Assembly (NCBI GenBank): GCA_020635175.1
Contig: JACKAH010000001.1
Span: 6,088 to 70,087 of the forward strand
DNA length: 64,000 nucleotides
Direction: 5' to 3'
Origin: Deltaproteobacteria bacterium
GTDB taxonomy: Bacteria > Bdellovibrionota_C > UBA2361 > J135
The position numbers and the translations under genes were made by a program. Numbering within the stretch: the first letter of the stretch is position 1; every line of letters begins with the position of its first letter. Shown piece after piece: positions 3,238 to 59,311 of the stretch. The notes below the pieces were generated by a model that was not told the origin of the DNA, made no database searches, and saw only the letters and a program-made list of their open reading frames with translations.

Positions 3238-3854
3238 GATCTGAGCGAATTAACAGAGAGTTTGGTTATAGTTTAGTCGAGCTTATAGTAAGCTTGATGC
3301 TTTTCTCTGTTCTCATCTTCGGGATGACTACATATTCTGATACTACTTTACGTGATCTAGGGCTAGAGAATAGAACCGCTGATGCGGTCAGAGAGGTTAG
3401 AAATACAGTATCCGTTATGAGTTCTGAGCTTCGTATGGGCTCAAATATTTCACCATACCTTCCAGGAAACGATCCAAGTTTGGTAAGCTGTTCATCTCAA
3501 CTTACAGCTTCCTCTACTACAATTAGATTTTTAGTCGTGCATGATGATGTAAGTGCAACCTCTGGAATTCAACCGTACTACGTTGGGTATATGTATGACG
3601 CTGCTACTCGTCGTTTGCTGCGCGGAGAAGTCCAAGGGTTATCAACTACAAGTTGCACGCTTCCAAGCGATGATCCTTTATCAGGATCGAATGCAAGAGT
3701 GATTGCAGAGAAAGTTGTGCAGGTTGGTGCTCAGCCAGTTTTTTCATTAAATGGTTCGATTTTAACGGTTACCTTTGGTGTAGAAGTGGATGGTGGAGCT
3801 GGATTGTCAAAGACGCAGAACTTCTCAACTAGAGTTTTTGTTAGAGGTATTTAA
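3234..3854 (+). CDS. Type IV pilus minor pilin PilW-like
   Basis: Prepilin N-terminus EFGYSLVELIVSLMLFSVLIF. Stop and start overlap in the operon. Confidence 0.5.
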   Translation: MRSERINREFGYSLVELIVSLMLFSVLIFGMTTYSDTTLRDLGLENRTADAVREVRNTVSVMSSELRMGSNISPYLPGNDPSLVSCSSQLTASSTTIRFLVVHDDVSATSGIQPYYVGYMYDAATRRLLRGEVQGLSTTSCTLPSDDPLSGSNARVIAEKVVQVGAQPVFSLNGSILTVTFGVEVDGGAGLSKTQNFSTRVFVRGI

Positions 3855-3859
3855 CTTAG

Positions 3860-4540
3860 ATGAAGAGTAGTCGTAAAATATACTTTTCAGAATCAGGAAT
3901 TACACTTCCTATTGCCCTCTTGCTTCTATTGATAGTTAGCGCTGCCTCTGCTTTAATCTCAAACACTTCAACTCAAAATTTTCAGGAGATGAAAGCAACA
4001 GAGGCAATTCACGATGGTTTTTATGTGGCAGAAGGTGCTCTTGAGGATTTGATCTCTCAATTATCTGCTGCGCCTGAAATTTGGAGAGATATGGCAATCC
4101 TGCCAGGCGTGCCAAATGGCTATACTAAGTATTCTCCAATTACATATACATCAACAAATGGAATCCCTGATTGTACCGGCATTGCATGTCATAGAGAGAT
4201 GTATCCTATCGGTGGAGGTGTTTTAAAGAATTTCGGACCAAAAGGCGCCGAGGGTAGTGAAATAGATGTTAATTTTTCGATCACCTCGCAACTTGATCCT
4301 GCTGATACACCAACAGCAGATATCACTTTGAATAATAGAAGCGCTTGGACTCAAATTGAAAGACTTGATGAAACTAAGCCTAGTAGCAGTACGCTTGGTA
4401 TGAGTTTAGAGAACAACAACTTGCAAGGTTCATCAGGAGCTTCTATTAGATTTAGGATTACAGCTGTAGCGCTAAGACAGCTTAAAAATAGAATTGGAAC
4501 TTCAACAGTTACGGCAGTTGTGGAGATGCCACCGGCATAA
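3860..4540 (+). CDS. PilX-like minor pilin / pilus assembly protein
   Basis: Hydrophobic N-terminus MKSSRKIYFSESGITLPIALLLLLIVSAASALI. It sits in the pilW-pilY1 position. Confidence 0.45.
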   Translation: MKSSRKIYFSESGITLPIALLLLLIVSAASALISNTSTQNFQEMKATEAIHDGFYVAEGALEDLISQLSAAPEIWRDMAILPGVPNGYTKYSPITYTSTNGIPDCTGIACHREMYPIGGGVLKNFGPKGAEGSEIDVNFSITSQLDPADTPTADITLNNRSAWTQIERLDETKPSSSTLGMSLENNNLQGSSGASIRFRITAVALRQLKNRIGTSTVTAVVEMPPA

Positions 4541-4547
4541 GATTTAT

Positions 4548-7500
4548 ATGAAAGAGCAGTTTAGCAAATTTTGTATAGCATTCTTTCTTGCAGCATTCGT
4601 CTTGCTGGTGCCAAAATTTGTATTTTGCGACAATCCTGAGATTCCTGTCCTGGTAAATCAAATTGCACTTGGTAAGACAATGTTCATTTTGGATGACTCA
4701 GGTTCAATGATCTCTGTTGTTGAGCATGAAGACTTTGACCCAACAAGTGCAGTTGCTACTAATTCTAATAACAAAATTCCGGCATTAATATTTAGAAATG
4801 AATCTGGCGGTTCTTCTCCTAGTTCAAATAATACCCTTCGTCCTGTCTTGATTGAATTTAACTACCTTTATAACAACGTACTTACTTCTATTAGGGGACA
4901 GGTAACAGGAAACCTTTTTGAGACAGGTACGTTAAGTAATGCCTCACAGATTGATTCTGTTAAGCATATGGGTTGTACAACAAGCAGTAATTATTGTTGT
5001 CCGTCTTATGGGAGTTGTAGTTACAGTAACGTTTTTGGAATTAACAATGCAGTTTGGTTTGAGAATAGTTCTACAAAAGGACCAAACGTCTTTCAAACTT
5101 CAAAGCTACATAAAGTAGGTGGTAACTATCAAACGGATTCAAATGGACATGAGTATCTCTACGTAAATGCCGATACAAATGACTTTTACGCCAATAATTA
5201 CACTTGGGGCAGTTATTGGCCAAAGTTTGATAGTGATGGTGACTTACTATCGTATTCAACAAGGATCTGGACTACTACCGGTGGAACAGTTCTTTTTAAC
5301 GATAAAGAGGTTTTCTTATCAGCGGGTTTTTATCGTCAGGAATACTTACGTTGGATTTTTTATGGTGCAACACAGGAGCAATTAAACAATCTGCCTGGCA
5401 CAAGTAGGATTCAGCTTGTAAAAGACGTAATGGAGCAACTCATTTTAAACAATCCTGATGTTGAGTTTGGAATTGCTACTTTAAACGGATCGAAGCTTCA
5501 CCCAGGACAGCATACTGGTTATCTAATAGATCAGTTTTATGAACCAGAAGGGGATGTTGATTACCATGAGTATGGAGTTATACGTTCGCCAATCGGTACG
5601 GATCCTGCCACAATTATAAGTCAACTTGACCTAATTGGTGCTGATGGTGGAACACCATTAGCTTATACTTATATTGAAACGATGCGCTATTTTGATGGTG
5701 CAACGGCAAATGACCCGAATTGTACAATCTGTAATTACACATCGCCAATTAATAGCGTCTGTGATGGTCACTTCGTTGTTCTATTAACTGATGGATTACC
5801 AACGAGTGAAAGTTCAAATACCTTTAGAGGGAACTACATTCAAGATTATGATGGTGATGGAGAGGACGGTGCAAACTCAAATTACAACTGTAACTCAAAC
5901 ACTTGTCATGAATTTTTAGATGATGCTGCCAAGTTAGCTTATGATACTGATTTTAGCGATCTAGGTGGAACTCAGAAGTTAATTTCATATGCTGTAGGTA
6001 TGGGGCTAGACTTTGACTTGTTGGATGATTTTGCTGTTAATGGAGGAACACAGACCTCACTATCTGCAACAACGGCTGCTCAAATTACAAACACTTTACA
6101 GCAGATAGTTTCAATGATTATTAACACACCAGTGTCAGGTGCAGGTGTTGCATTGGCTGAGGCGTTTGGTGAAACAGGTAAAGTTTATCGACCTAGATTT
6201 AGAGCTGATAACTGGACGGGTAATATCGATGTCTTTGAATATGTAAATGACGAATTAAGCCATCTTTTTGATATGGGTGATATCTTAGAGGCTCGCGATG
6301 TTACAAGCTCGCCGAGAACTATATTTGCCGGTTACGATCCTGATCATGATGGAAATACGAATCAAAGCATAGTTTTTCATACCGATTACGCAGCAAATTT
6401 AAAACCTGAACTTTTTGAACTTTTCTACTCAGGAGCTGAGCAGGTTTCAAATTTAGCAACTCCACTTCAGAATTACACAAACAACCAAGCTTCATACGAT
6501 CTAATTCGTTATATACATGGTATCGATCAAACTGGAATGCGAATTAGGGATAGCGATGCTGATAATAATGTTGAAAAACTTGGAGATATCGTTTATTCGC
6601 GACCAATTGAGGTTGGCCCTAAGAATGGACAGTATAATGATATGGAGGGCTATGCTGAGTTTGTTGCAAGCAAGTCGAGTGAACCGAGATTGCTTCTAGT
6701 TGGTGCCAATGATGGAATGATGCATGCCTTTAATTCACAGACTGGAGAAGAGGTTTGGGCTTATATTCCTTCAAGTCAGCTCAAGTATCTTGAGCGCTTG
6801 GCACGTCCTTTTTATAACGTAGAAGATAGAAGGTCTTTCGTAGATGCTGACGTGGTTGTTGAGGATGCCTATATTGGGGGACAGTGGAAAACACTTGCAA
6901 TGTTCGGACTTAGAACGGGAGGTTCTACTTATACTGTCTTAGATGTTACCGATCGTGAATCTCCAAGCTTGCTCTTTGAGATTAGTGAGCCAGCAAATTA
7001 TGGAGAATCTTGGACCACTCCTATCGTTGTTCCAGTAAATGGGCCTGCTAGTTCAAGTAATCCAGGTGATTATAGTTGGTATATGGTAGTCGGTACGGGA
7101 GAGAATAAGCCTACCCCCGGTAGTAATATAGTAGTCTATAACTTAAATAGCTCACTTCCAACTGGTACTGTTAAAACTCTCTCAGGCTCTGATCCAGCAG
7201 GAACAAGAACTGCAACGCCAGTTGCTGTACAAACAGATTCGGATCTCAATGCGGATAGAATATACGTTGGGACTGAAGAAGGCGATATGTATCGAATAAA
7301 CTTAGTCGCTGGTCCCGGTTCCTGGGTTGTTCAAAAGATGTATAACGGCTCAAGTACACAGCCGATCGTTGCCCCAGCTTCTACAGTCCTAGTTGAAAAT
7401 CCCGAATATAATTCTGGAGCAACAACTGGTATTGAAACAATTAAACTAGCTGTTGGCGTGTATTGGGGAACTGGACGCTATGATACTCAGAGTGACGTTG

Positions 7501-8330
7501 AAGAACTCGATGGAGTTACTCAGTCAATTATTGGAATGTTTGATCCGGTGAAAACAACAGGTGATGATTATCAATATGCTCTTACAAACCGAAGCAAATC
7601 TAGTTTAAAGAATCAAAGTGTTGATACTTTTGATGTGCTAAGAAAGAGTAGCGGAATTTACACTGTTCCGAATGAAGAGAATGGTTTTTATATTGATCTT
7701 GATACCAGCATCAACTTAACTACAGATGGATATATTGACCCTGTAGGAATGGTAATCGACTATGCTGTAAACGTCAGAGGCGCTTTATTGTTTACAACTT
7801 TCCTACCTAGCACTGGACAGTGTGACATTGGAGGTTATGGATTTTTGCAGGGAGTAAACTTTAGAACAGGAGGTGGTGTTATCGTTGACTATAGTGGAGA
7901 TGCTCCATTTTATAATGGTGGTATCTTTGATGCTGATGGCGACTTAGATTACGATGACGATGACCTAAGCTTAGTTTATGGAAAGCAGCTTCAAGCAGCA
8001 TTGGATGCTCATGTTGAATCTTATGACGATCAGCAGGTAAACCCATATATTCATGATGGTCTGTTAAAGCAAAATGACATTAGGCTTCATCAAAGTAATG
8101 GTGGGGTATTGCCATCTGTGTCATCCATAGGAAACACTGGTGCCCCGAGCTCACCAGCGATTTTACACAGCACAGGGCAGATAATTGTACAGCCAGCATA
8201 TCCAATTCCTCCAAGTAGCCAAGGAGGACAAACTCAATCTTCTGATGTGCCACCGCCAAATACATCAGAGATTAACATTTACAGTTTACCGTTGAGTAAA
8301 TTATCTTTCCATGAAACAACGGGACAATAA
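4548..8330 (+). CDS. pilY1: PilY1-like type IV pilus tip adhesin / biogenesis factor (vWA + beta-propeller)
   Basis: 1261 aa. Signal peptide MKEQFSKFCIAFFLAAFVLLVP. vWA MIDAS motif ILDDSGSM near the N-terminus. Large C-terminal domain with the Asp-rich Ca-binding-like stretch DADGDLDYDDDD. It lies downstream of the minor pilins. The 4494 start in the ORF track overlaps pilX, so the internal Met at 4548 is preferred. Confidence 0.75.
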   Translation: MKEQFSKFCIAFFLAAFVLLVPKFVFCDNPEIPVLVNQIALGKTMFILDDSGSMISVVEHEDFDPTSAVATNSNNKIPALIFRNESGGSSPSSNNTLRPVLIEFNYLYNNVLTSIRGQVTGNLFETGTLSNASQIDSVKHMGCTTSSNYCCPSYGSCSYSNVFGINNAVWFENSSTKGPNVFQTSKLHKVGGNYQTDSNGHEYLYVNADTNDFYANNYTWGSYWPKFDSDGDLLSYSTRIWTTTGGTVLFNDKEVFLSAGFYRQEYLRWIFYGATQEQLNNLPGTSRIQLVKDVMEQLILNNPDVEFGIATLNGSKLHPGQHTGYLIDQFYEPEGDVDYHEYGVIRSPIGTDPATIISQLDLIGADGGTPLAYTYIETMRYFDGATANDPNCTICNYTSPINSVCDGHFVVLLTDGLPTSESSNTFRGNYIQDYDGDGEDGANSNYNCNSNTCHEFLDDAAKLAYDTDFSDLGGTQKLISYAVGMGLDFDLLDDFAVNGGTQTSLSATTAAQITNTLQQIVSMIINTPVSGAGVALAEAFGETGKVYRPRFRADNWTGNIDVFEYVNDELSHLFDMGDILEARDVTSSPRTIFAGYDPDHDGNTNQSIVFHTDYAANLKPELFELFYSGAEQVSNLATPLQNYTNNQASYDLIRYIHGIDQTGMRIRDSDADNNVEKLGDIVYSRPIEVGPKNGQYNDMEGYAEFVASKSSEPRLLLVGANDGMMHAFNSQTGEEVWAYIPSSQLKYLERLARPFYNVEDRRSFVDADVVVEDAYIGGQWKTLAMFGLRTGGSTYTVLDVTDRESPSLLFEISEPANYGESWTTPIVVPVNGPASSSNPGDYSWYMVVGTGENKPTPGSNIVVYNLNSSLPTGTVKTLSGSDPAGTRTATPVAVQTDSDLNADRIYVGTEEGDMYRINLVAGPGSWVVQKMYNGSSTQPIVAPASTVLVENPEYNSGATTGIETIKLAVGVYWGTGRYDTQSDVEELDGVTQSIIGMFDPVKTTGDDYQYALTNRSKSSLKNQSVDTFDVLRKSSGIYTVPNEENGFYIDLDTSINLTTDGYIDPVGMVIDYAVNVRGALLFTTFLPSTGQCDIGGYGFLQGVNFRTGGGVIVDYSGDAPFYNGGIFDADGDLDYDDDDLSLVYGKQLQAALDAHVESYDDQQVNPYIHDGLLKQNDIRLHQSNGGVLPSVSSIGNTGAPSSPAILHSTGQIIVQPAYPIPPSSQGGQTQSSDVPPPNTSEINIYSLPLSKLSFHETTGQ

Positions 8331-8331
8331 T

Positions 8332-8757
8332 ATGATGAAACAATTAACCCTTTTAATTTGCTTTGTTACTCTTGCGATAGTGAATGTTTATGCGCAGGAA
8401 GCGGGCCCCTCTAATATAAAGGATCAAGCAGTGCAGATTCGAAGTGGTATCCTTGGCGGACCACCACAGTTTATCTTAATCGGAAAAATAGAGACGGGTA
8501 AAAACGAAGCATTTGCAATTAATGGACAAGATTTTAAAGTCAATGACAAAACTCGCATTACAGGAGTTTTAGAGAAGGGTGCACAGGCTCGTGCGCAGGG
8601 TGAAAGATTAGGCTCTACTTTTCTAGCCAAAACAGTTGTTATCTCAGATGGTGAACAGCAAGATATTAAGAAGCCCGACTTTACAGATCCGAAAGACTTC
8701 GGTGAGGAGACGCGTTCTCCAGGAATCTTGCCAGGTCAGACTGAATTACCACGTTGA
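8332..8757 (+). CDS. Small secreted protein of unknown function (PilY2-position ORF)
   Basis: Sec signal peptide MMKQLTLLICFVTLAIVNVYAQEA. It has no prepilin motif, so it is not a PilE-type pilin. Confidence 0.4.
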   Translation: MMKQLTLLICFVTLAIVNVYAQEAGPSNIKDQAVQIRSGILGGPPQFILIGKIETGKNEAFAINGQDFKVNDKTRITGVLEKGAQARAQGERLGSTFLAKTVVISDGEQQDIKKPDFTDPKDFGEETRSPGILPGQTELPR

Positions 8758-8780
8758 TTTATATCCTGAATTTTACTTAG

Positions 8781-8975
8781 AGAGTTCTTTCCGGGGGCTC
8801 AAACGACCTGTCATTGCGAAGGAGCGATAGCGACTGTGGCAATCTGTTTGTAATTCCATATTGTAGGGATTACCACGTCCTACCTGCACTACGTGCATGT
8901 AGTCCTCGTAATGACAGATTGTATACCTCCCTCGGTAAGGACCCACTAAGGAAAACTCTAAGCTCATTACGGATG
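8781..8975 (+). repeat. Copy 1 of a ~190-nt structured non-coding element (candidate ncRNA or MITE)
   Basis: Long-range stem cctgtcattgcgaagg (8808-8823) pairs with cctcgtaatgacag (8904-8917). Internal hairpins gtagg...cctac and tgcac-tac-gtgca. Nearly identical to copy 2, which lies 300 bp downstream. Confidence 0.6.
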
Positions 8976-9080
8976 ATGCTCCCCAGTAGAAAACCAGCTT
9001 TCAGAGCTCTAATAGCTAAAGCCTCTTAGATTACTACATCCAATATTTATCTAGATAACTAGCTACCTAGTGTTTTCGAA

Positions 9081-9275
9081 GTGGGTTCTTTACCGAGGAC
9101 TCAAACAACCTGTCATTGCGAAGGAGCGATAGCAAAGCGAAAGCGACTGTGGCAATCTGTACGTCTTGCCATATTGTAGAGATTACCACGTCCTACCTGC
9201 ACTACGTGCATATAGTCCTCGTAATGACAGAACATAAGCCTCTCCTCAAGGACCCACTAAGGAAAACTCAGTACG
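9081..9275 (+). repeat. Copy 2 of the same structured element
   Basis: Same stems (9109-9124 with 9217-9230) and the same conserved tail aaggacccactaaggaaaactc. Carries a 14-nt insertion, aaagcgaaagcgac, that is absent from copy 1. Confidence 0.6.
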
Positions 9276-9437
9276 TGTAATGTTCAAATGCTCCAGCTTT
9301 CTGTCTGAACTTGCTTGATTTTTAAAGGGTTATAGCCCTCTGTTTTGAGCTATCATGCCATCTATGCTTTTTTTATTGAGTTTAAGGCGCTTACACTGTA
9401 ATCAGATGTTAGATCTATTTAACTAAAGGAGCCTTCT

Positions 9438-10223
9438 ATGGGTAATGAAGCTGAAGATTTCGGAACACAAAATTCAACCAAGGGCTGTTCACATAACAGC
9501 AATCAACCCTGCCTTAAAGCTGCTCTACTACGGGCTAAAGATATGGTTATGAGTCCTGGTGCAACTTGGGACAAGCTCAAATCTGAAGATATGACTATAA
9601 ATCAAGTTTTTATGACTTACGCAGTCTTCCTTGTCGCTGTAACGCCTGTTTGTGAATTTATCCGTATGACAACAGTCGGAAGAACTCTACCATTTATCGG
9701 TACGATGAAGTGGCCACTGATCTCTGGATTAGTTACTACGATTGTAACTTATGCTCTAGGACTTGCTACTATCTATATCGCAGCGGTCATTATGGAAAAG
9801 CTTGCTCCAAAATTTGATGGGGCACTTACTTTAGGTAACGCTGCAAAGCTCTTCGCTTTCTCAATGGCACCGGTATATCTGGGTGGTGTTTTTCAACTGA
9901 TACCATATCTATCAGCACTCGGTCTTTTATGTGGTCTTTATGGCTTGTACCTTTTTTATCAAGGGATTCCTAAGATAGCAGGAGTTACAGAGAAGAGAGT
10001 GCCATTTTTCTTAGTTACAATTGTGGCCCTGATTGTAACGATGATGATTGTTGGTTTAGTTGTAGCTGCAGTATCTCCTAGTATGTTTACAGCACCTGAA
10101 GTTGTTCAAGGTACAAATACATTGAACCTTCCTGGGGGTGTTTCAATTGACATGAATGAGGCTCAAAAGACAGCTGAGCAGTTACAGAAAATGTTCCCAC
10201 AACAAGGAACTACTGGAAATTAA
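9438..10223 (+). CDS. Polytopic membrane protein (Yip1-domain-like), function unknown
   Basis: About five predicted TM helices after a soluble N-terminus. There is an RBS-like aaggag 8 nt upstream. Confidence 0.45.
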   Translation: MGNEAEDFGTQNSTKGCSHNSNQPCLKAALLRAKDMVMSPGATWDKLKSEDMTINQVFMTYAVFLVAVTPVCEFIRMTTVGRTLPFIGTMKWPLISGLVTTIVTYALGLATIYIAAVIMEKLAPKFDGALTLGNAAKLFAFSMAPVYLGGVFQLIPYLSALGLLCGLYGLYLFYQGIPKIAGVTEKRVPFFLVTIVALIVTMMIVGLVVAAVSPSMFTAPEVVQGTNTLNLPGGVSIDMNEAQKTAEQLQKMFPQQGTTGN

Positions 10224-10319: not shown

Positions 10320-13300
10320 ATGAAAAGCAGTCTAAAAATTCACGGTGCCTCTGAGAATAACCTCAAACACATTTCGCTTGAAGTTCCCCACGACCAATTA
10401 ACCGTAGTTACTGGACTGTCAGGCTCAGGTAAATCTTCCCTCGCATTTGGCACTATCTATGCTGAAGGACAGCGCAGATATATTGAAACATTCAGCTCTT
10501 ATACAAGACAGTTCTTTGATAAGATCAAAAAGCCTGATGTTGATCTGATACAGTACGTTAAGCCGGCAATTGCAATCCAGCAGAAGAATAAAATTCGCTC
10601 CTCAAGATCTACAGTTGGTTCAGTCTCTGGGATTAATGATTATTTGAAAATTTTATGGGCAAATCTTTCTGAATCTGTATGTCCGAGTTGTAGTATTCCA
10701 TTAAAAGCAGATACGCCAAGTATTGTAGCGGATATTTGCCTAAAAAAACTAAAAGAGGTTCAAACTTCAAGATACGCTATCTGCGCACCTATTCGTTTTG
10801 ATTTCTCTCAAAGCAAAGCTACCGTTGCAAAGAAGCAGAAAATAGAGATCGAACGGCTAAGAATCTTAGGATTTAGTCGCTTCTTAAATCCAGATAGCGG
10901 TGAAATTGTTGAGTTAGATACACCAAAGACTTTGGTGCTTACTCAGTCTGAAGAATTGCTGGTTCTAATTGAGCGCTTCTCTAATAAGAGCTCTTCACGC
11001 AAGCAGATAATTGAAGCTGTCGAGAAGAGTTATCAAGTAGCGAATAAAAGAGTTTGTCTTGTTAATCTTAGCAAGAACCAAGCTAGTAAAGTTAACTTCT
11101 TAACTGTAGTTAATTGTGATTCTGCTCCAAATTTAAGACGAGATAAACTTGAGTTAACTTTTTTTCGAAACGAGATAGGATGTGATTATTCAGATCTACA
11201 GATAAAGCCTGCTCGTCCCTCGTTGTTTAGTTTTAACCATCCTTATGGTGCGTGTGAGAGCTGTAGAGGATTTGGTTCGATTCTCACTATCGATCTTAAG
11301 AAGTGTATACCCAATCCAAGACTTTCAATTGAAGAAGGTGCAATTGCTCCTTGGGCGGTTGATTCTAGGCGTTGGGAAATGAATCAGCTGTTAAAGTTTT
11401 GCAAACACGAAAAGATTAAAATCGATATAGCCTGGAATGAGCTAAGTCAGGAGCAGCAAGCTCTCATTTTAGAGGGGAATTCTGATTTTAAAGGGCTGTT
11501 CTCTTGGTTTAAAAGGTTAGAGCGGAAAGCATATAAAACGCATGTAAGGGTGTTTTTAGCTAGATATCGTTCAGAAGAGCTTTGCGGAACTTGTAATGGA
11601 GCAAGGCTTAATTCAAGCGCATTAGCTTATAAGATAGATCAGAAAAGTATAGCTGATATCTGGGATGCCCCAATTAGCGAGCTTTTAAAACTAACTGAAA
11701 AATTAAGTTCTAAGATTGATCCAGAATCATATCAGTTAATCGAAGTTTATAAGACCTTGCTTGCAAGATTGCAGTTTCTAGAACATGTCGGACTTCCCTA
11801 TCTTACACTTGGGAGAAATTCAAACACTCTTTCTGGAGGGGAAACCCAGAGAGTTAATCTTGCTGCTGCCATTGGTAGCAACTTGGTTTCAACTCAATTT
11901 GTCTTAGATGAGCCTACAGTTGGGCTTCACTCAAGAGACACAGACAGATTGTTAACTGCAATTAGACAGCTTCAGGGTCGTGGAAATAGTATCGTAATGG
12001 TTGAGCATGATCTGGATTGTATCGCTGAGGCTGATCATATCATTGAGCTTGGTCCAAAAGCAGGTTCTGAGGGGGGAGAAGTTGTCTATGCTGGAGATGC
12101 AAGCCTTTGGAATGGGATTTCGTTAGCCCCTTATCTGACTTCACTTAGTAGGTTGACTAAGAGCAAAACCAAAGCGAATGAATATTTCGGGGTTAAGGGT
12201 GCTAAATTTAGAAATTTAAAAAACATAGATCTTAAAATTCCGATTGGTAGTTTCTCTTGTTTAACCGGTGTATCTGGTAGTGGCAAGACGACTCTCTTGC
12301 AGGAGGTGTTCCTAGGAAGCCTAGAGCTGTCCAAACGAGGTGAGGACTTTAGCCACTTATGTGAAGAGCTAGTTGGAATTGATAAATTTGAGCAAGTATT
12401 ACTAGTCGATCAATCGCCTATTGCTAAAAGTCCACGTGGAAATATCGCCACATATAGTGGTATTTGGAACGAAGTGCGGTTAATGCTAGCAGCTACAGAT
12501 GCTGCGATTAGTAGGGCTTTAGACAAATCGGCCTTCTCGTTTAATGTTGATGCTGGTCGATGTACAACTTGCCGTGGTGCAGGATTCATTAAAGAAGACA
12601 TGCAATTTTTAAGCGATGTCTATATTCCTTGTGAAGTTTGCTTGGGCACTAGATTTCAGGAACATGTGCTGGAAGTTGAGTATCAAGGTAAAAACGTAGC
12701 AGAGCTTCTTAACTTCACGGTCTCTGATGTAATAAAGTTTTTTGGAGAGAATAAGAAGATATTTGAATTAGCAACAATGCTTGAATCTCTTGGGCTGGGA
12801 TACTTACGCTTAGGGCATTCTCTAAGCGAGCTATCCGGTGGTGAAGCTCAGCGCCTAAAACTAGTTCCTTTTCTTGCTAAGAATTCTGAACAAAACATGC
12901 TCTTTTTATTTGATGAACCAACTACCGGCTTACATCTGCATGACATATCTAAGCTGCTTGAGGTATTCGAAGCAATTCGATCAAACGGACATACAGTCTT
13001 ATGTGTTGAGCATAACTTGGCTTTGATTTATGCAGCAGATTGGATTGTTGATTTGGGTCCTGATGGAGGATCGGGAGGTGGTGAGATCTGTGCTTGTGGC
13101 GATCCTAAAAAATTGGTTTCACAAAAAAAGAAGAGCTCTGAAACAATTAGTTTTTTAGAAAATTTTAAGAATGATCTTGCTCAGAAAGCAGAGGTGTTTT
13201 TAGCCAGACAAAAAAAGATAACTAGCAAGTTAGCTAAGCCGATTAAGCAACTTGAAATTCGTCATGCTAAAGAGAACAATTTAAAAGACATCAACGTTTC

Positions 13301-15719
13301 AATTCCACTTAACCAGATAGTTGCCTTCACTGGAGTTTCGGGATCAGGCAAATCAACAATTGCAAAGGATATAATCTATTCAGAAGGACAAAGAACATAT
13401 TTGGATTGTCTTTCTCCTTATGCACGCCAATATATACGAGAGTTAAAGCACCCTGATATAGAATCAATTAGCGGCATATTGCCTACTATATGTGTGCATC
13501 AACATACATTTCAGCCAAGCGAGCTCTCGACCGTCGGAACAATGAGTGAAATTTACAACTATTTAAGGTTGTTGTTTGCGAAGGTAGGAACACAATATTG
13601 TCCAGATCATCCAGATATGCCGATTGCTGCTTTCACCGCAAAGGAAATAGCGAGTGAACTCCAAGCAAAATATAAGACAAAGATTAAGATTCTTGCTCCA
13701 GTTGTGAGAGGCAGAAAGGGCTACCACAAGTCCATTTTTGAAAAGGCACTGGCGGCTGAGATCTCTGAAGTTCGAGTTGATGGTTTCTTTGGGAAACCCT
13801 CAAGCTACTTAGAAGGCTTAGAGAGAAACAAAACTCACGATATTGATTATGTTGTAGCACATTGCACCCCGAATAACGTTGATTTTGAAATACTCGAAAG
13901 TGTAATTACTCAAGCAATCACGTTAGGTTCCGGTACAATAATCGTATCTGAAAAAGATAGACAGCAAGTTTTTAGTACCGAAAGAAACTGCTCGATCTGC
14001 AAAAGGGGATTCCTAAAGCCTGACCCTGAGGATCTTTCATTTCGCTCACGTCGTGGGGTTTGTGATGATTGTGGAGGATTCGGTGATTACGAAGGTGGGG
14101 AGAAATGTCATTCTTGTTATGGTGCAAGATTGGGCCCCGTTGGTCGCTCAATTAAAATTGATCAACTCAATATTTGGGAGGCGAGTAAGCTAACACTGAT
14201 TAACCTTTTTGATTTTCTCTCAAAGCTAAAGATATCTGAGCGCGAGAAGGCTTTATCAGAGCAACTTATTTCTGAGATGCTAGCTCGAACTAAACTATTG
14301 ATTGATTTTGGGCTAGGCTATTTGTGTCTAAATCGTGATTGTCTGAGTGTTTCAACCGGAGAATTGCAAAGACTAAGGTTAGCAGCTGCTCTTGGCTCTC
14401 CCTTAAGTGGAGTAATGTATATCTTAGATGAACCATCGGTAGGCTTGCATCCGAATGATAATGCAAAGCTGCTTGACAAGTTGGCTTACGTAAAAGAACA
14501 GGGAAATTCAGTAATTGTTATAGAACATGATCCTGACACAATCCTTGCCTCAGATTATATCTTAGATGTCGGGCCAAGTGGTGGTCAGCATGGTGGAGAG
14601 ATAATTTTTTCAGGTACCATACAGGAATTTTCAAACTCTCAGACTTCGATTACAGCACAAGCTCTTTTTTCAGAACCTCCTCTGATAGAAAATTCTGATT
14701 CTAATTCAGTTTCAGAGCAGCTAGTAGTTGAAAGTGGTAGTTGTAATAATATCTTAAATCTTTCAGTGACGCTTCCTTTAAACAGTTTAATCTCTGTTGT
14801 TGGGGTTTCTGGAGCAGGTAAAAGCTCATTTGTACATGGAATAATTGAAGAAACTATTCTCAACGGAGAGTATAAACAGAATCGGTGGAAGTGCAAAGGC
14901 AACGTAGTTTCATCAACAATACCAATCAAGAGAGTTGTTTCTGTTGATCAAAAACCTATTGGAAAAACTTCTCGTTCAACGCCAGGTTCTTATTTTGGAG
15001 TTTGGGATGAGATACGAAAAGTCTTTGCAAAAACAATTGATGCTCAGGCTCGTGGTTGGAAAGCAGGTTATTTCTCGTTCAATACTGGTCAAGGTCGTTG
15101 TAGCGAATGTCAAGGAGTCGGTGAAATTAAACTAGAGATGAGCTTTTTGCCCTCAGCTAAGATTCCTTGTCAACGTTGCCAGGGAGGAAGGTTCAGCGAA
15201 GAAGCATGTTCGGTGCGCTACAATGGGTTAAACATAAGCGAAGCCTTAAGTATGACAATCGAAGAAGCTAAGGACTTTTTTGTTAATCACAAGAAAATAT
15301 ATCAGCCACTTTCAATAGCCTGCGATCTAGGTATTGGTTACATTACGCTTGGACAAAACTCTGCAACCCTTTCAGGTGGCGAAGCTCAGCGCTTGAAACT
15401 AGTAAGTGAGCTAACATCTAACTCTGTTGGACACACTCTTTACATACTGGATGAGCCGACAACAGGTTTACATATCAAGGATGTTTATCGTTTGATAAAT
15501 GTTTTACATGCACTTGTGCAGAAGGGAAATTCAGTTTTAGTTGTAGAGCACGACCAGCAGTGTATTCAAGCTTCGGATTTTGTACTCGAGTTTGGACCGG
15601 GTGCCGATCTTGAAGGTGGGGATGTTATCTTCAGTGGGAAACCAGGCCAGCTATACTCATCTAAGACTCCATGGGGAGAAATCTTTAAAGGAAACAGCCT
15701 TTCAAAGAAGCAAGCTTAG
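10320..15719 (+). CDS. uvrA: Tandem-fused double UvrA-like excinuclease ABC subunit A (1799 aa, four ABC ATPase domains)
   Basis: UvrA N-terminus GASENNLKHISLEVP...TGLSGSGKSSLAFGTIYAEGQRRYIETFSSY. Four Walker A sites: GLSGSGKSS, GVSGSGKTT, GVSGSGKST and GVSGAGKSS. Four ABC signatures: LSGGETQRV, LSGGEAQRL, STGELQRL and LSGGEAQRL. Walker B motifs LDEPTVGLH, FDEPTTGLH, LDEPSVGLH and LDEPTTGLH. Zn-finger Cys pairs are present. There is no stop codon between the two UvrA units. Confidence 0.85.
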   Translation: MKSSLKIHGASENNLKHISLEVPHDQLTVVTGLSGSGKSSLAFGTIYAEGQRRYIETFSSYTRQFFDKIKKPDVDLIQYVKPAIAIQQKNKIRSSRSTVGSVSGINDYLKILWANLSESVCPSCSIPLKADTPSIVADICLKKLKEVQTSRYAICAPIRFDFSQSKATVAKKQKIEIERLRILGFSRFLNPDSGEIVELDTPKTLVLTQSEELLVLIERFSNKSSSRKQIIEAVEKSYQVANKRVCLVNLSKNQASKVNFLTVVNCDSAPNLRRDKLELTFFRNEIGCDYSDLQIKPARPSLFSFNHPYGACESCRGFGSILTIDLKKCIPNPRLSIEEGAIAPWAVDSRRWEMNQLLKFCKHEKIKIDIAWNELSQEQQALILEGNSDFKGLFSWFKRLERKAYKTHVRVFLARYRSEELCGTCNGARLNSSALAYKIDQKSIADIWDAPISELLKLTEKLSSKIDPESYQLIEVYKTLLARLQFLEHVGLPYLTLGRNSNTLSGGETQRVNLAAAIGSNLVSTQFVLDEPTVGLHSRDTDRLLTAIRQLQGRGNSIVMVEHDLDCIAEADHIIELGPKAGSEGGEVVYAGDASLWNGISLAPYLTSLSRLTKSKTKANEYFGVKGAKFRNLKNIDLKIPIGSFSCLTGVSGSGKTTLLQEVFLGSLELSKRGEDFSHLCEELVGIDKFEQVLLVDQSPIAKSPRGNIATYSGIWNEVRLMLAATDAAISRALDKSAFSFNVDAGRCTTCRGAGFIKEDMQFLSDVYIPCEVCLGTRFQEHVLEVEYQGKNVAELLNFTVSDVIKFFGENKKIFELATMLESLGLGYLRLGHSLSELSGGEAQRLKLVPFLAKNSEQNMLFLFDEPTTGLHLHDISKLLEVFEAIRSNGHTVLCVEHNLALIYAADWIVDLGPDGGSGGGEICACGDPKKLVSQKKKSSETISFLENFKNDLAQKAEVFLARQKKITSKLAKPIKQLEIRHAKENNLKDINVSIPLNQIVAFTGVSGSGKSTIAKDIIYSEGQRTYLDCLSPYARQYIRELKHPDIESISGILPTICVHQHTFQPSELSTVGTMSEIYNYLRLLFAKVGTQYCPDHPDMPIAAFTAKEIASELQAKYKTKIKILAPVVRGRKGYHKSIFEKALAAEISEVRVDGFFGKPSSYLEGLERNKTHDIDYVVAHCTPNNVDFEILESVITQAITLGSGTIIVSEKDRQQVFSTERNCSICKRGFLKPDPEDLSFRSRRGVCDDCGGFGDYEGGEKCHSCYGARLGPVGRSIKIDQLNIWEASKLTLINLFDFLSKLKISEREKALSEQLISEMLARTKLLIDFGLGYLCLNRDCLSVSTGELQRLRLAAALGSPLSGVMYILDEPSVGLHPNDNAKLLDKLAYVKEQGNSVIVIEHDPDTILASDYILDVGPSGGQHGGEIIFSGTIQEFSNSQTSITAQALFSEPPLIENSDSNSVSEQLVVESGSCNNILNLSVTLPLNSLISVVGVSGAGKSSFVHGIIEETILNGEYKQNRWKCKGNVVSSTIPIKRVVSVDQKPIGKTSRSTPGSYFGVWDEIRKVFAKTIDAQARGWKAGYFSFNTGQGRCSECQGVGEIKLEMSFLPSAKIPCQRCQGGRFSEEACSVRYNGLNISEALSMTIEEAKDFFVNHKKIYQPLSIACDLGIGYITLGQNSATLSGGEAQRLKLVSELTSNSVGHTLYILDEPTTGLHIKDVYRLINVLHALVQKGNSVLVVEHDQQCIQASDFVLEFGPGADLEGGDVIFSGKPGQLYSSKTPWGEIFKGNSLSKKQA

Positions 15720-54568: not shown

Positions 54569-54645
54569 TGGCGCGCCCTGAGAGATTCGAACTCCCGACC
54601 TTCTGGTTCGTAGCCAGATGCTCTATCCAGCTGAGCTAAGAGCGC
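54569..54645 (-). tRNA. tRNA-Arg (anticodon ACG)
   Basis: The reverse complement GCGCTCTTAGCTCAGCTGGATAGAGCATCTGGCTACGAACCAGAAGGTCGGGAGTTCGAATCTCTCAGGGCGCGCCA folds as a cloverleaf. The anticodon loop is CTACGAA. Confidence 0.85.
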
Positions 54646-54845
54646 ATAAAATTAACTTCAAAAGAAATCACTACTCGCCTCAGCTGGATAGAGCAAATGC
54701 TCACTATGAGATTCTATCCGAAGCTGAGCTAAGAGCGTATAAAACTAACCTCAAAAGAAATCACTACTCGCTTCAGCTGGATAGAGCAAATGCTCACGAT
54801 GAGATTCTATCCGAAGCTGAGCTAAGAGCGCATTTCATATAAGAG
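54631..54845. repeat. 2.2 copies of a 93-bp tandem repeat derived from the 5' part of the tRNA-Arg gene
   Basis: Units start at 54631, 54724 and 54817. Each begins with ctgagctaagagcg (the tRNA 5' end as read on the plus strand) and contains an inverted copy of the D-arm, tcagctggatagagca. Confidence 0.7.
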
Positions 54846-56881: not shown

Positions 56882-57122
56882 TTAATACTTGATGCACTTG
56901 GGTAGAAGTTATTCCTAGTGCATCGAGAACACTAACAAGTTCTGTTAGTGGGCTAGGTGTACCAGGCAAGCTATGCGTATGTGGATGCTTGGTCTTTATC
57001 ATGTATGGAGAACAAGCATCCACGCACGCCCTGACGAGGGTTTCTCCTCCAGTATTTGTGCCGCGTCTTATCGCGTGGATTAGTATTCGTCGCACAGAAC
57101 TGGTTCCCTAGGTTAACCAATC

Positions 57123-58109
57123 ATGAGAACACCGATCCTCCTGAGCTTCGTGCTCATCGTGGCGGCCTGCCATCATGGCGGCAGCTCGCCTTCCAAGCCC
57201 AAGAACCCGAACAAGGTCGTGCTCGAGACGAGCATGACCCTGCCGCAGACGCCGTTCCCCATGATCTCGGCGCGCTACACGACCAAGAAGGGTACCCCGA
57301 CCTTCGGGACCTTCATGTTCAACAGCACGCCGCCCGACGCGCTGCACCTCGTGCAGAGCGACTACGACGGCTGGGTCGACTTCATCCTCGACTCGACCTA
57401 CTTCGGTCCGTGGGAAGTGCAGGCGCAGGACGAGTTCGGCGAGAACATGACCGACGTCGCCGAGGTCGATGTGCTGCCGTACGAGTACGCGCTCTTCGCG
57501 AGCTCGACCATCCTCGATCCGAACACCTCGCTCGAGATCGAGGGCTGGGCGGTCAGCGGCAACGGCTTCTACTTCATGCCCGAGAGTGGCAGCGCCGATC
57601 TGTGGGGCTTCGACTCCGTGGTCGGTGAGTGGATGCCGGTCGTGGCCGATATCCCGGTGCCGAGCATGCTCGATCTGAGCGGTGTCGACTTCAGCGGCTT
57701 CGAGCGAGAGGCGGGCTTCCTGCTGATCGGCGAGAGTTCGCTGACGAACGCCACCAGTGCGGTGATCGAGATGAACCTGCCCGACCTGAACCTGGGCGGC
57801 TGGGGCGTCAACGTCTCGCAGAGCGGTGAGAACATCGAGATCGGCAACGGCATGATGGCTCGCAAGGGCGATCCGTTCCACTTCGAGCTCGAGTCGCTCA
57901 ACGGCTGGATGCACGGCAGTGCGTTCGCGACCGCTCTGCACGTCGAGAGCGGTGAGAGCGTCACGCTCGCACTCGCTGCAGGCCAGAACGGCTTCGACTG
58001 GGAGGACTGGCCGCAGTCGACTGCTGCCGGCCTGACCGGGCACTTCCGCATCGGCTTCGAGATCGACGGCGAGCAGGTCAACTTCAACCTGTTCCGACTC
58101 GAGCCCTGA
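57123..58109 (+). CDS. High-GC (foreign codon usage) lipoprotein, unknown function
   Basis: Lipobox LSFVLIVAAC. GC3 is near-saturated (ctc/ctg/gcc/ggc/acg codons throughout), in a genome of about 40% GC. Opposite-strand ORFs of similar length are GC-shadow artefacts. Confidence 0.6.
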   Translation: MRTPILLSFVLIVAACHHGGSSPSKPKNPNKVVLETSMTLPQTPFPMISARYTTKKGTPTFGTFMFNSTPPDALHLVQSDYDGWVDFILDSTYFGPWEVQAQDEFGENMTDVAEVDVLPYEYALFASSTILDPNTSLEIEGWAVSGNGFYFMPESGSADLWGFDSVVGEWMPVVADIPVPSMLDLSGVDFSGFEREAGFLLIGESSLTNATSAVIEMNLPDLNLGGWGVNVSQSGENIEIGNGMMARKGDPFHFELESLNGWMHGSAFATALHVESGESVTLALAAGQNGFDWEDWPQSTAAGLTGHFRIGFEIDGEQVNFNLFRLEP

Positions 58110-58138
58110 TCGCAGGAGAGCATCATGAAGTACGTGCG

Positions 58139-58171
58139 AGCGTCTGGGGTAGCACCGGCTCCCCAGACGCT
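58139..58171 (+). terminator. Hairpin downstream of the high-GC lipoprotein gene (terminator-like, no T-tract)
   Basis: A perfect 11-bp stem agcgtctgggg-tagcaccggc-tccccagacgct. Confidence 0.35.
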
Positions 58172-58498
58172 CCTGCGCGTCGTCTCTCATGACGAATTTG
58201 GTTTATGAATGAAAAAGGATTTCAGTAAGCTTGCCAGGTACATCGTACCGATTTTTACATTTCTTCTATAAATCTAAGTACTTGTTGCTTGATTCTGATG
58301 AGACCCAAGTGCCATTGCTTCTCATAACAATAATGTTCTGATCTTTGTATTAACCCATCTGAGTAAACCTATGTAAGTAAAGGTTTATGGTTGGTGCCTG
58401 TTTGAGTTTTTGATTCAACCAGGCATCCGCCTACAAGTTCACGCTCCTTCATCGGAGCACCATTCTACCGTTCCCGTTCCTCAACCCCGGAGTTCCCA

Positions 58499-59311
58499 AT
58501 GCGTGCTAAGTACGCCCTGCTGCTCTTCGTGCTGCTGATGTTCGCTGCTGCCATCTGGCGCTTCGACCTCATCGGCACGACCAACAGTGTCCCGAGTGCT
58601 CAGGCCATCGCCTCGGAGCACGACCGTGCTCTCGAGCAGATCGATCAGCTTAGCGACGCTCAGCAGTTCGAAGAGCTGAGCAACAACCAAGAAGATCCCG
58701 CTGAGCAGGCCAAGGCCTGGGAGCTGCTTCAACGAATCCAGAACGAAGGGCAGCAACGTCAGCGCGAGAAGAAGCTCGCCAACGAGTCGAAGATCCAGAA
58801 CACGCTCGTCGAGGAGACCGACACGAGCATGCTCAAGCCTGGACCCTCGCTGCCGAATCTCGAGGACGATCCTGTCCTGTGCCTCTTCGCTCTGCTCGAG
58901 CATCGCATCGCGGTGCTCGCTCCCGAGACTGGCAGAGCAGGGATCTACTCCAATCTGCGTGATGGCGTGACCTGCGTCGTCACGAACAACAGCAGAGCGC
59001 TGATCGCTGCCTTCGGCGACGTCTTCCTCGATGGTGGTGAGTTCACGCTGACGAGCTTCAAGGCTCTGATGCTGACCCATCGAGGAACGGACCAGCAGTT
59101 CGACCCGCAACAGGCCTCGGCCTACGCGGTGATCAAGCACTACGAGAGCCTCGACCCCGGCTGGGCATCGCGGCGTCTGCAGAGTTCTGACTACCTCGAG
59201 CGCTTCCAGGCGCTCGTGTTCCCTCAGTACGAGCAGCCGACGCAACCGCAACGCGAGCTCGAGCAGAACGTGGCGCTGCTGCTGCAGTCCTGGTCTCGCA
59301 GCATGCGCTGA
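58499..59311 (+). CDS. High-GC (foreign codon usage) signal-anchored or secreted protein, unknown function
   Basis: RBS ggag 8 nt upstream. N-terminal hydrophobic segment MRAKYALLLFVLLMFAAAIW. The same extreme GC3 as 57123..58109. It is separated from that gene by an AT-rich spacer of about 300 bp. Confidence 0.55.
   Translation: MRAKYALLLFVLLMFAAAIWRFDLIGTTNSVPSAQAIASEHDRALEQIDQLSDAQQFEELSNNQEDPAEQAKAWELLQRIQNEGQQRQREKKLANESKIQNTLVEETDTSMLKPGPSLPNLEDDPVLCLFALLEHRIAVLAPETGRAGIYSNLRDGVTCVVTNNSRALIAAFGDVFLDGGEFTLTSFKALMLTHRGTDQQFDPQQASAYAVIKHYESLDPGWASRRLQSSDYLERFQALVFPQYEQPTQPQRELEQNVALLLQSWSRSMR

Follow-up and report, generated by a model that had tools for sequence, protein, structure and literature searches.

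Two composite palindromic units between a pilY1 operon and a Yip1-family gene resemble REP doublets found across bacterial phyla

Results

The pilY1-Yip1 intergenic gap

The window analyzed here, a single 64-kb stretch of DNA, contains a 680-bp gap (8758-9437). On one side of the gap is the stop codon of a 148-aa open reading frame, which closes a minor-pilin/PilY1 operon, and on the other is the start of a Yip1-family gene. Two copies of a composite palindromic element lie in this gap in the same orientation, the first of them beginning 10 nt (8758-8767) beyond the upstream stop codon.

8311-8757, plus strand: upstream gene, 148 aa, without a Pfam hit; final gene of the minor-pilin/PilY1 operon
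8768-8958, no strand assigned: copy 1 of the composite palindromic element, 191 nt, comprising outer inverted repeats, linkers and a core doublet; delimited by the alignment of the two copies and by the terminal inverted repeats
9070-9269, no strand assigned: copy 2 of the composite element, 200 nt, separated from copy 1 by 111 nt
9326-9349, plus strand: terminator-like hairpin followed by a T-run, 3' of copy 2; from a consensus scan only
9438-10223, plus strand: downstream Yip1-family gene

The consensus scan that produced the terminator-like hairpin found two sites where 1.0 was expected, and no promoter-like site was seen before either copy. The gap is also crossed by small open reading frames, for example 8773-8967 (minus strand) and 8814-9029 (plus strand), which are spurious. 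The nearest relatives of the Yip1-family protein are 40-42% identical to it, and one of these is labelled Oligoflexia. The gaps upstream of the Yip1 homologues in relatives (90 and 145 bp), which were also searched with a profile, do not contain the element, and a conserved leader of the Yip1 gene was rejected on this basis.

Two discrete copies

Alignment of the two units gives an overall identity of approximately 88-91%, and a repeat search resolves the similarity into three collinear blocks, 88-100% identical, whose starts are 302, 313, and 311 nt apart. Exact matches to each of two diagnostic 22-25-mers number two in the 64 kb, where shuffled sequences are expected to contain none, and BLAST at a word size of 7 detected no third copy in the window. 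Within the visible 64 kb there are thus only two copies, adjacent to each other. The sequences flanking copy 1 and copy 2, both between and beyond them, are non-homologous, with local alignment scores within the range obtained from shuffles, and the pair is therefore two discrete, sharp-ended copies and not a duplicated 300-bp segment. A Logan contig (L001) terminates within copy 2.

A sequence-only reading of this DNA had already described a near-identical pair of units about 300 bp apart in a 680-bp gap, and both the size of the gap and the presence of two copies were confirmed. The ends it gave (8781-8975 and 9081-9275) need to be moved slightly leftward to the positions listed above, as defined by the terminal inverted repeats. 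It had also described the length difference between the copies as a 14-nt insertion in a loop of copy 2. Relative to copy 1, copy 2 in fact carries an 11-nt insertion (9131-9141), along with a 2-nt deletion in the right outer arm, and the insertion is not a simple loop expansion, as it adds a second GC-closed mini-hairpin, GCGAAAGC, beside the existing GCGATAGC. No target-site duplication of 5 bp or more was found at either copy in the window, even when the ends were shifted by up to 14 nt in either direction.

Anatomy and predicted fold

Each unit is a nested palindrome in which outer inverted repeats of about 30 nt are followed inward by short unpaired linkers, a 14-bp stem and three inner hairpins. 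The central 106-117 nt or so consist of two inverted arms, each (T)GTC-ATTGC...GCAAT-CTG, arranged as a doublet.

8768-8797, no strand assigned: left outer inverted repeat of copy 1, GAATTTTACTTAGAGAGTTCTTTCCGGGGG; predicted partner of 8929-8958
8810-8915, no strand assigned: core of copy 1, made up of two REP-like arms in inverted orientation, GTC tags outermost; matched by nhmmer
8810-8846, plus strand: left arm of copy 1, GTCATTGCGAAGGAGCGATAGCGACTGTGGCAATCTG, with tag TGTC, basal stem ATTGC/GCAAT and mini-hairpin GCGATAGC
8868-8915, plus strand: right arm of copy 1, consisting of GATTACCACG, an inserted hairpin CTACCTGCACTACGTGCATGTAG (8880-8902) and then CCTCGTAATGAC
8929-8958, no strand assigned: right outer inverted repeat of copy 1, containing AAGGACCCACTAAGGAAAACTC
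9070-9098, no strand assigned: left outer inverted repeat of copy 2, GTGTTTTCGAAGTGGGTTCTTTACCGAGG; predicted to pair with 9240-9269
9112-9228, no strand assigned: core doublet of copy 2, with left arm 9112-9159 carrying the insertion 9131-9141 (GCGAAAGC) and right arm 9181-9228
9240-9269, no strand assigned: right outer inverted repeat of copy 2

Between the units, the right end of copy 1 and the left outer inverted repeat of copy 2 also show 71% complementarity. The sequence AAGGACCCACTAAGGAAAACTC had been taken for a conserved tail of the unit (8937-8958 and 9248-9269); it is indeed present in both copies, but it is not a free tail, being part of the right terminal inverted repeat, which pairs with the left end of the unit. 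Similarly, the long-range stem reported as 15 bp does contain the described G-T pair and bulged A, but in copy 1 it consists of 14 pairs, formed between 8808-8822 and 8904-8917.

Folded as RNA, both units are considerably more stable than their shuffled counterparts, with z scores of -5.7 (copy 1) and -5.8 (copy 2) on the plus strand and -4.3 and -3.8, respectively, on the minus strand. The corresponding minimum free energies on the plus and minus strands are -74.1 versus -68.8 kcal/mol for copy 1 and -71.6 versus -70.6 kcal/mol for copy 2. The core alone, folded as DNA on both strands, gave z scores of -4.1 and -4.3 for copy 1 and of -3.5 and -2.6 for copy 2. A lone arm of the type found in the window folds no better than shuffles (z of about 0), whereas the doublet folds well on both strands. 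Between ATTGC and GCAAT, copy 1 has an interior of 21 nt and copy 2 one of 32 nt; in the rest of the family the interior ranges from 9 to 40 nt and is often a hairpin.

The sequence-only reading had used the G-T pair as a pointer to the plus strand, where it would form G.U in RNA. One-sided changes in the outer core stem are indeed all G.U on the plus strand, but this is cancelled by the inner stem, in which GGCAATC faces GATTACC with a C.A mismatch that would be G.U on the minus strand. A strand call from G-U pairs was rejected, as the outer core stem favors the plus strand and the inner-stem mismatches wobble only on the minus strand.

A core family spanning bacterial phyla

A 22-mer from the left arm, GTCATTGCGAAGGAGCGATAGC, is found exactly in 48 loci of 17 genomes belonging to eight other phyla in the GTDB representative set, where approximately 0.07 matches are expected by chance, as estimated from the size of the collection and the length of the pattern. 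The hosts belong to Chloroflexota, Planctomycetota, Bacillota, Alphaproteobacteria, Bacteroidota, Patescibacteria, Omnitrophota, and Nitrospinota, with 19 occurrences in the fragments of one Sedimentisphaerales MAG and 11 in one Clostridia MAG. The full 37-nt left arm of copy 1 is identical in four loci (L002, L020, L047, and L048). All complete copies have a common layout, GTCATTGCGA-[module]-G(NN)GCAATC(Y) - apical stem-loop - (R)GATTGC(NN)CG-[module]-CTCGCAATGAC, and the individual arm can be written as (T/C)GTC-ATTGC-[variable module or mini-hairpin]-GCAAT-C(T/C)N, about 37-48 nt in length, the two arms being inverted with the GTC tags outside.

Broader searches extended this distribution. 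A four-anchor pattern with a free interior occurs in at least 120 loci of IMG/VR viral contigs, mostly matching both strands, which indicates a palindromic element in which either module type can occupy either arm. The A-variant of the right arm seen in the window, GATTACCACGTC...CCTCGTAATGAC, was found in at least 120 loci of marine, sediment, and rumen metagenome contigs. A GC-rich consensus of the family matches unannotated intergenic DNA in megaplasmids of Novosphingobium, Methylosinus, Methylocystis, Aulosira, and Halomonas, including at least 40 places in one Novosphingobium replicon. The multi-copy genomes include Sedimentisphaerales PL23b_bin.92, Clostridia RGIG4046, and Novosphingobium resinovorum pSA1. 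The window unit had no match among PLSDB plasmids, the canonical GC-rich doublet had none in a phage collection, and a search for extra copies by way of spurious ORF products in a protein database yielded no candidates. A search of open-access text for the core-family consensus, both as sequence strings and as encoded peptides, returned only unrelated primer hits.

In the reverse direction, an nhmmer profile built from 180 doublets of other organisms, with the window excluded, was run against the 64 kb and matched exactly the two cores on both strands and nothing further. The E-values were 3.3e-9 (plus) and 1.6e-8 (minus) for the core of copy 1 and 2.8e-7 (plus) and 5.6e-7 (minus) for that of copy 2. 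At the level of sequence, the core falls within a very large family of repeats that spans at least nine bacterial phyla.

Ordinary REPs diverge together with their host, and ordinary REP biology does not account for a 37-nt non-coding arm that is nearly identical in at least nine phyla.

Family behavior in other genomes

In other genomes, the family is multi-copy, intergenic, and indifferent to orientation. Doublets with the GTC tags outside number 189, with a median length of 84 nt, compared to three with the tags inside, and single arms make up 20-40% of all arms. Judged by crude ORF-based gene calls, the elements fall between genes, at a median distance of about 31 nt past the upstream stop codon, and are distributed among tandem, convergent, and divergent gene pairs as the background is. 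Where an arm is asymmetric, its direction relative to the flanking genes shows no bias, nine being co-oriented and seven opposed, and the neighboring genes of family members are unrelated across many phyla.

Low-GC members have, between GTCATTGCGA and GTGGCAATC, a hairpin module whose sequence is free but whose pairing is maintained. The dinucleotide beside GCAATC/GATTGC shows no covariation in an unbiased set (0.58 versus 0.54), while the tail positions of the doublet do pair together, with a Watson-Crick fraction of 0.85 versus 0.50 in shuffles. Covariation was rejected as evidence for RNA, as pairing at the tail positions can reflect the shared subfamily identity of the two arms and not selection for pairing.

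Rfam searches of the window returned only four tRNA matches, and the best score within 8600-9500 was 19 bits against a threshold of 70. Fifteen family-rich loci (131 kb) gave no Rfam hits, whether at the gathering threshold or at E ≤ 10. The distribution and folding of the family are the behavior of a REP/BIME/REPIN-type repeat and not of an RNA gene.

Outer repeats and mobility

The core is wrapped differently in different lineages. In the Sedimentisphaerales MAG, it lies inside a longer element, TGCTTTGTAGAAAAG...CTTTTCTACAGAGCA, flanked by clear 9-bp target-site duplications (TTTTGAATT in L011, AATTTAGAT in L030, ATATCAAAT in L037, and AAAAGAATT in L045). An Anaerolineales MAG has a different outer palindrome with target-site duplications of about 13-15 bp, for example GTTATCCCGCTTTTC in L033. 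Among the fetched loci, neither of these outer repeats was found without a core. The outer repeats of the window and the inserted hairpin at 8880-8902 had no homologue by BLAST in 2.17 Mb of family-bearing loci, and a 20-mer of the right outer repeat had no match in metagenome contigs. These comparisons indicate that the outer inverted repeats of the window are specific to the source lineage and, since they have no homologue, that the window element is one more lineage-specific composite around a universal core. The differing lengths of target-site duplications in the two other genomes, together with their absence at the window copies, suggest that there is more than one route of spread.

We know of no transposase for the core family. 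When six-frame ORFs from 1.46 Mb of loci were scanned, a strict HUH/Y1 motif gave no hits and a relaxed HUH...Y motif gave two, one of which is a Y1-transposase-like ORF located 650 nt from an element in a Paceibacterota MAG (L049). This ORF scores 20.4 bits against Pfam Y1_Tnp, under the cut-off of 23 bits, and has homologues that make up a large family of Patescibacteria, named RayT by some sources. No elements adjoin these homologues in four other genomes, where they are packed tightly among genes. An association of the family with a RAYT or REPtron by way of the L049 ORF was rejected and its adjacency taken as coincidence, as the homologues lack elements. A tblastn search with E. coli RAYT, using an approximate sequence as the query, found nothing, and no insertion sequence sharing the outer repeats of the window was found in the fetched loci or in the metagenome scan.

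Discussion

We interpret each unit as a non-autonomous palindromic repeat with a REPIN-type REP-doublet core, belonging to a cross-phylum family and having no dedicated small-RNA function, and we place the probability of this reading at roughly 0.78. The pair would have arisen through insertion of DNA copies, or through arrival of one copy followed by a second nearby. Movement would probably proceed through a single-stranded or cruciform hairpin substrate, with the responsible enzyme acting in trans, and a dedicated function as a small RNA is not expected of either copy. Because the terminator-like hairpin, if used, lies downstream of both copies, the pair is probably transcribed together with the pilY1 operon as its 3' UTR. 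In E. coli, REP stem-loops protect the 3' end of mRNA from 3'-5' exonucleases or attenuate read-through. By analogy, stable stem-loops in this 3' UTR would block 3'-5' exonucleases or attenuate read-through, an effect that would be a by-product and not that of a designed regulator.

The sequence-only reading had preferred a functional structured RNA, either a duplicated sRNA or a riboswitch-like leader; the latter would be a cis-regulatory leader or riboswitch of the Yip1 gene. The strong fold kept in both copies (z of about -5.7), the slightly better minimum free energy of the plus-strand RNA and the restriction of one-sided changes in the outer core stem to plus-strand G.U pairs would all be in keeping with such an RNA. 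Against these stand the nearly equal folding of the opposite strand, the inner-stem mismatches that become G.U only there, and a family that has no gene-orientation bias and is found beside unrelated genes, in addition to the lack of a promoter-like site before either copy and of the element at Yip1 homologues. Its remark that no standard Rfam family was recognizable held, as the element matches none in the window either at the gathering threshold or at E ≤ 10. With a fold present on two strands, a multi-copy core in unrelated contexts and no bias in orientation, the preference for an sRNA or riboswitch leader is not supported, and we consider a functional RNA very improbable. Even less credible is a local tandem duplication of an immobile intergenic stretch of about 300 bp, unrelated to other genomes. 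The copies are adjacent, similarly oriented, and about 302-311 bp apart, as such an event would leave them, but the sequence between and beyond them is non-homologous, scoring in the shuffle range, and the core is common to hundreds of loci elsewhere. A segmental duplication was rejected, the non-homologous flanks in effect refuting it.

A classical MITE deserves more consideration, though we still judge it unlikely. In this case, the 191-200-nt unit would be a deletion derivative of an insertion sequence moved by a DDE transposase, with the REP-like core as internal cargo. The unit as a whole does have terminal inverted repeats of about 30 nt and sharp boundaries, and the same core occurs in the Sedimentisphaerales and Anaerolineales composites with 9-bp and approximately 13-15-bp target-site duplications. 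However, neither window copy has a target-site duplication, no parent insertion sequence was seen and the outer repeats are without a homologue in the 2.17 Mb of loci and the metagenome scan, many family members have no outer repeats at all, and it is the interior and not the ends that is conserved across phyla, the reverse of what is expected of a MITE derived from an insertion sequence. A MITE had been offered as the alternative in the sequence-only reading; that suggestion comes near the mark, the element being a non-autonomous, palindromic repeat of the REP-dimer or MITE kind, but the window copies show no target-site duplication.

Returning to the REP-doublet reading, a further and rather doubtful possibility is that the ATTGC...GCAAT doublets constitute one horizontally spreading, non-autonomous family served by an unrecognized and very widespread mobilizing or maintaining factor. 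Such spread would fit the near-identical 37-nt arm across at least nine phyla (with a module that varies elsewhere), the abundance of the family in contigs classed as viral, and the occurrence of the core inside different composites with different lengths of target-site duplication. If true, the family would offer a route to a new structure-specific DNA (or RNA) enzyme acting on GTC-tagged hairpins, and the window copies would be one lineage-specific composite around the core.

For annotation of this locus, the result is mainly a negative one: the "structured" 680-bp gap is repeat DNA, and its annotation as an sRNA or riboswitch is unwarranted. A repeat model or AntiFam-type model of the core family would clear metagenome annotation of many false "hypothetical proteins" and false ncRNA candidates, and a proper description of the family would also frame the question of what moves CGTC-type REPs.

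Comparison with known systems

The resemblance of the element to the small RNAs and riboswitches of Rfam 15 is limited to a compact multi-branch fold well below shuffled energies; unlike them, it matches no family, its structure is strand-symmetric, it behaves as a repeat, and it has no gene association. The bacterial MITEs Correia/NEMIS, ERIC, RUP, and Nezha are closer, being likewise non-coding elements of 100-200 nt with terminal inverted repeats that form a long hairpin if transcribed, and the core-bearing Sedimentisphaerales and Anaerolineales composites share target-site duplications with them. The window copies differ from these MITEs in having no target-site duplication, in the failure to find a related insertion sequence, and in that the conserved part is internal.

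REPINs are REP doublets mobilized by RAYT/TnpA-REP, an HUH Y1 transposase. As in REPINs, two inverted REP-like arms here form one long imperfect hairpin of about 80-110 nt, the elements are multi-copy and intergenic, and the window copies lack a target-site duplication. In contrast to REPINs, the tag is TGTC or CGTC and not GT[AG]G (GTAG) 5' of the hairpin foot, no repeat-flanked RAYT (REPtron) was found in the 1.46 Mb of scanned loci, and the arms hardly differ between phyla, while REPINs diverge in step with a vertically inherited RAYT.

The report of Di Nocera et al. 2013 (BMC Genomics 14:522; PMC3733652) describes what is the closest known kind of element, the CGTC/TGTC-tagged REP dimers, which are REPIN- or MITE-like. 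As described there, CGTC/TGTC-tagged REPs include dRS3 of Neisseria and RPE-4 and RPE-6 of Rickettsia, are mostly head-to-head dimers, occur in several phyla, and have no dedicated transposase; some of the dimers are nested in lineage-specific longer palindromes that were never found empty (PMC3733652). The elements described here share with them an outer unpaired (C/T)GTC tag, a basal stem starting with AT (here ATTGC/GCAAT), a predominance of inverted dimers that can fold into one long hairpin, with some singletons, and an intergenic location just downstream of genes in many phyla with no dedicated transposase known. Also shared are the nesting of dimers in longer lineage-specific palindromes whose outer repeats are never found without the core, and a high copy number, seen here in other genomes (19 in one MAG and at least 40 places in Novosphingobium). 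In the window, both arms carry TGTC, as ccTGTC on the left (8808-8812) and as GACAg on the right (8913-8917), which is cTGTC on the other strand, and a copy on pNL2 of N. aromaticivorans has CGTC at both ends; in the other sets, the GTC tag was fixed by the search patterns.

The four published CGTC families have a continuous stem of 8-9 bp and a loop of 4-5 nt, with a short unpaired tail of consensus CCA and the tag variants TGTC and CCTC (PMC3733652). The tail of the present family is short and C-rich, reads GCAAT-CCA(G) in GC-rich members and CTG or CTC in the window subfamily, and has positions that pair with each other across a doublet. The stem is 5 bp and not 8-9 bp, the place of the 4-5-nt loop is taken by an interior of 21-32 nt with its own mini-hairpin or a hairpin of free sequence, and a single arm of the window type folds at chance level. 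The ATTGC-type motif is absent from the text of that report and from the supplements examined. Because it lacks the 8-9-bp stem and the 4-5-nt loop, the element is not filed under CGTC-1 to CGTC-4; it is a relative within the CGTC superfamily that has a split stem and a modular interior.

Flanks of the two copies

The two palindromic REP-like units of the window, copies 1 and 2, lie between the minor-pilin/PilY1 operon (here the pilus operon) and the Yip1 gene, and two further sequence features accompany them:
Window 9047-9058, perfect 12-bp palindrome TTATCTAGATAA, within the 111-nt spacer separating copies 1 and 2
Window 9326-9349, terminator-like hairpin AGGGTTATAGCCCT followed by CTGTTTTGAG, 3' of copy 2 and ~90 nt ahead of the Yip1 start codon

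Because the terminator-like hairpin is located downstream of copy 2, both copies are probably contained within the 3' UTR of the pilus operon. The palindrome in the spacer could be a candidate protein-binding site, or could have arisen by chance. Only one other public contig, L001 from Logan SRR12358676, carries the Yip1 gene. This contig terminates within the right arm of copy 2, with its position 1 corresponding to window 9219, as would result from an assembly break at repeated sequence.

Other features of the window

A 93-nt tandem repeat (window 54622-54833, 2.3 copies, 93% matches) covers one end (54622-54645) of a tRNA-Arg(ACG) gene (54569-54645, minus strand), and three clustered tRNA-Ser genes adjoin the site. 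Integration at a tRNA gene can leave a scar in the form of such a partial tRNA duplication. Two regions, window 57056-58190 and 58481-59311, contain long ORFs (185-360 aa) with both strands open over the same stretches, and no match in Pfam was found for any of these both-strand ORFs. Window 10320-15719 encodes a 1799-aa protein with UvrA interaction and DNA-binding domains and several ABC/P-loop modules; standard UvrA is roughly half this length.

Repeat family members in other genomes

The universal core of the family, an inverted doublet of GTC-tagged ATTGC...GCAAT arms, is found across bacterial phyla. One family member, in the Paceibacterota MAG RS_7_61, lies 650 nt from the following ORF (positions in L-numbered loci, which were fetched from other genomes or contigs, are local to each locus):
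L049 2368-3069, Y1_Tnp/RayT-like ORF with motifs NHYH and Y..N

This ORF has >2000 relatives at E<=1e-5, and the named ones among the best 120 of these are Patescibacteria. In the loci examined, the relatives are packed tightly between genes with no repeats beside them, and an MgsA/RuvB-like AAA gene adjoins in three of five loci. The L049 ORF looks like a domesticated single-copy gene.

In two MAGs the universal core is embedded in a larger composite element, and in a third it is accompanied by a second repeat type:
L011 6643-6770, L030 4489-4617, L037 2531-2659 and L045 650-796, Sedimentisphaerales composite (PL23b_bin.92)
L033 ~563-745, L022, L008 with L044, and L046 with L013, Anaerolineales composite (bin100123)
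L007 ~6470-6560, L035 ~3770-3850, L039 ~4290-4370 and L042 ~170-270, arrays of the CAATTCAC repeat (Clostridia RGIG4046)

The Sedimentisphaerales composite is ~130-150 nt long, has the ends TGCTTTGTAGAAAAG/CTTTTCTACAGAGCA with the core in a central position, and is flanked by clean 9-bp target-site duplications; it therefore behaves as a true MITE. The separate Anaerolineales composite, with ends TGTAGTGGTCAGGAATACC.../...GGTACCTTTGACCACTACA, is built on the same core and shows unusually long and variable insertion-site direct repeats (~13-15 bp), and several bin100123 contigs start or stop within it. In RGIG4046, arrays of a second short repeat containing CAATTCAC (e.g., GCAATTCACGCGCGAAGCGCAATTCACTGAGCGTTAGCGAAAATTCACGCTTGC) adjoin the family doublets, an arrangement that points to mosaic, BIME-like clusters in which several types of repeat are combined.
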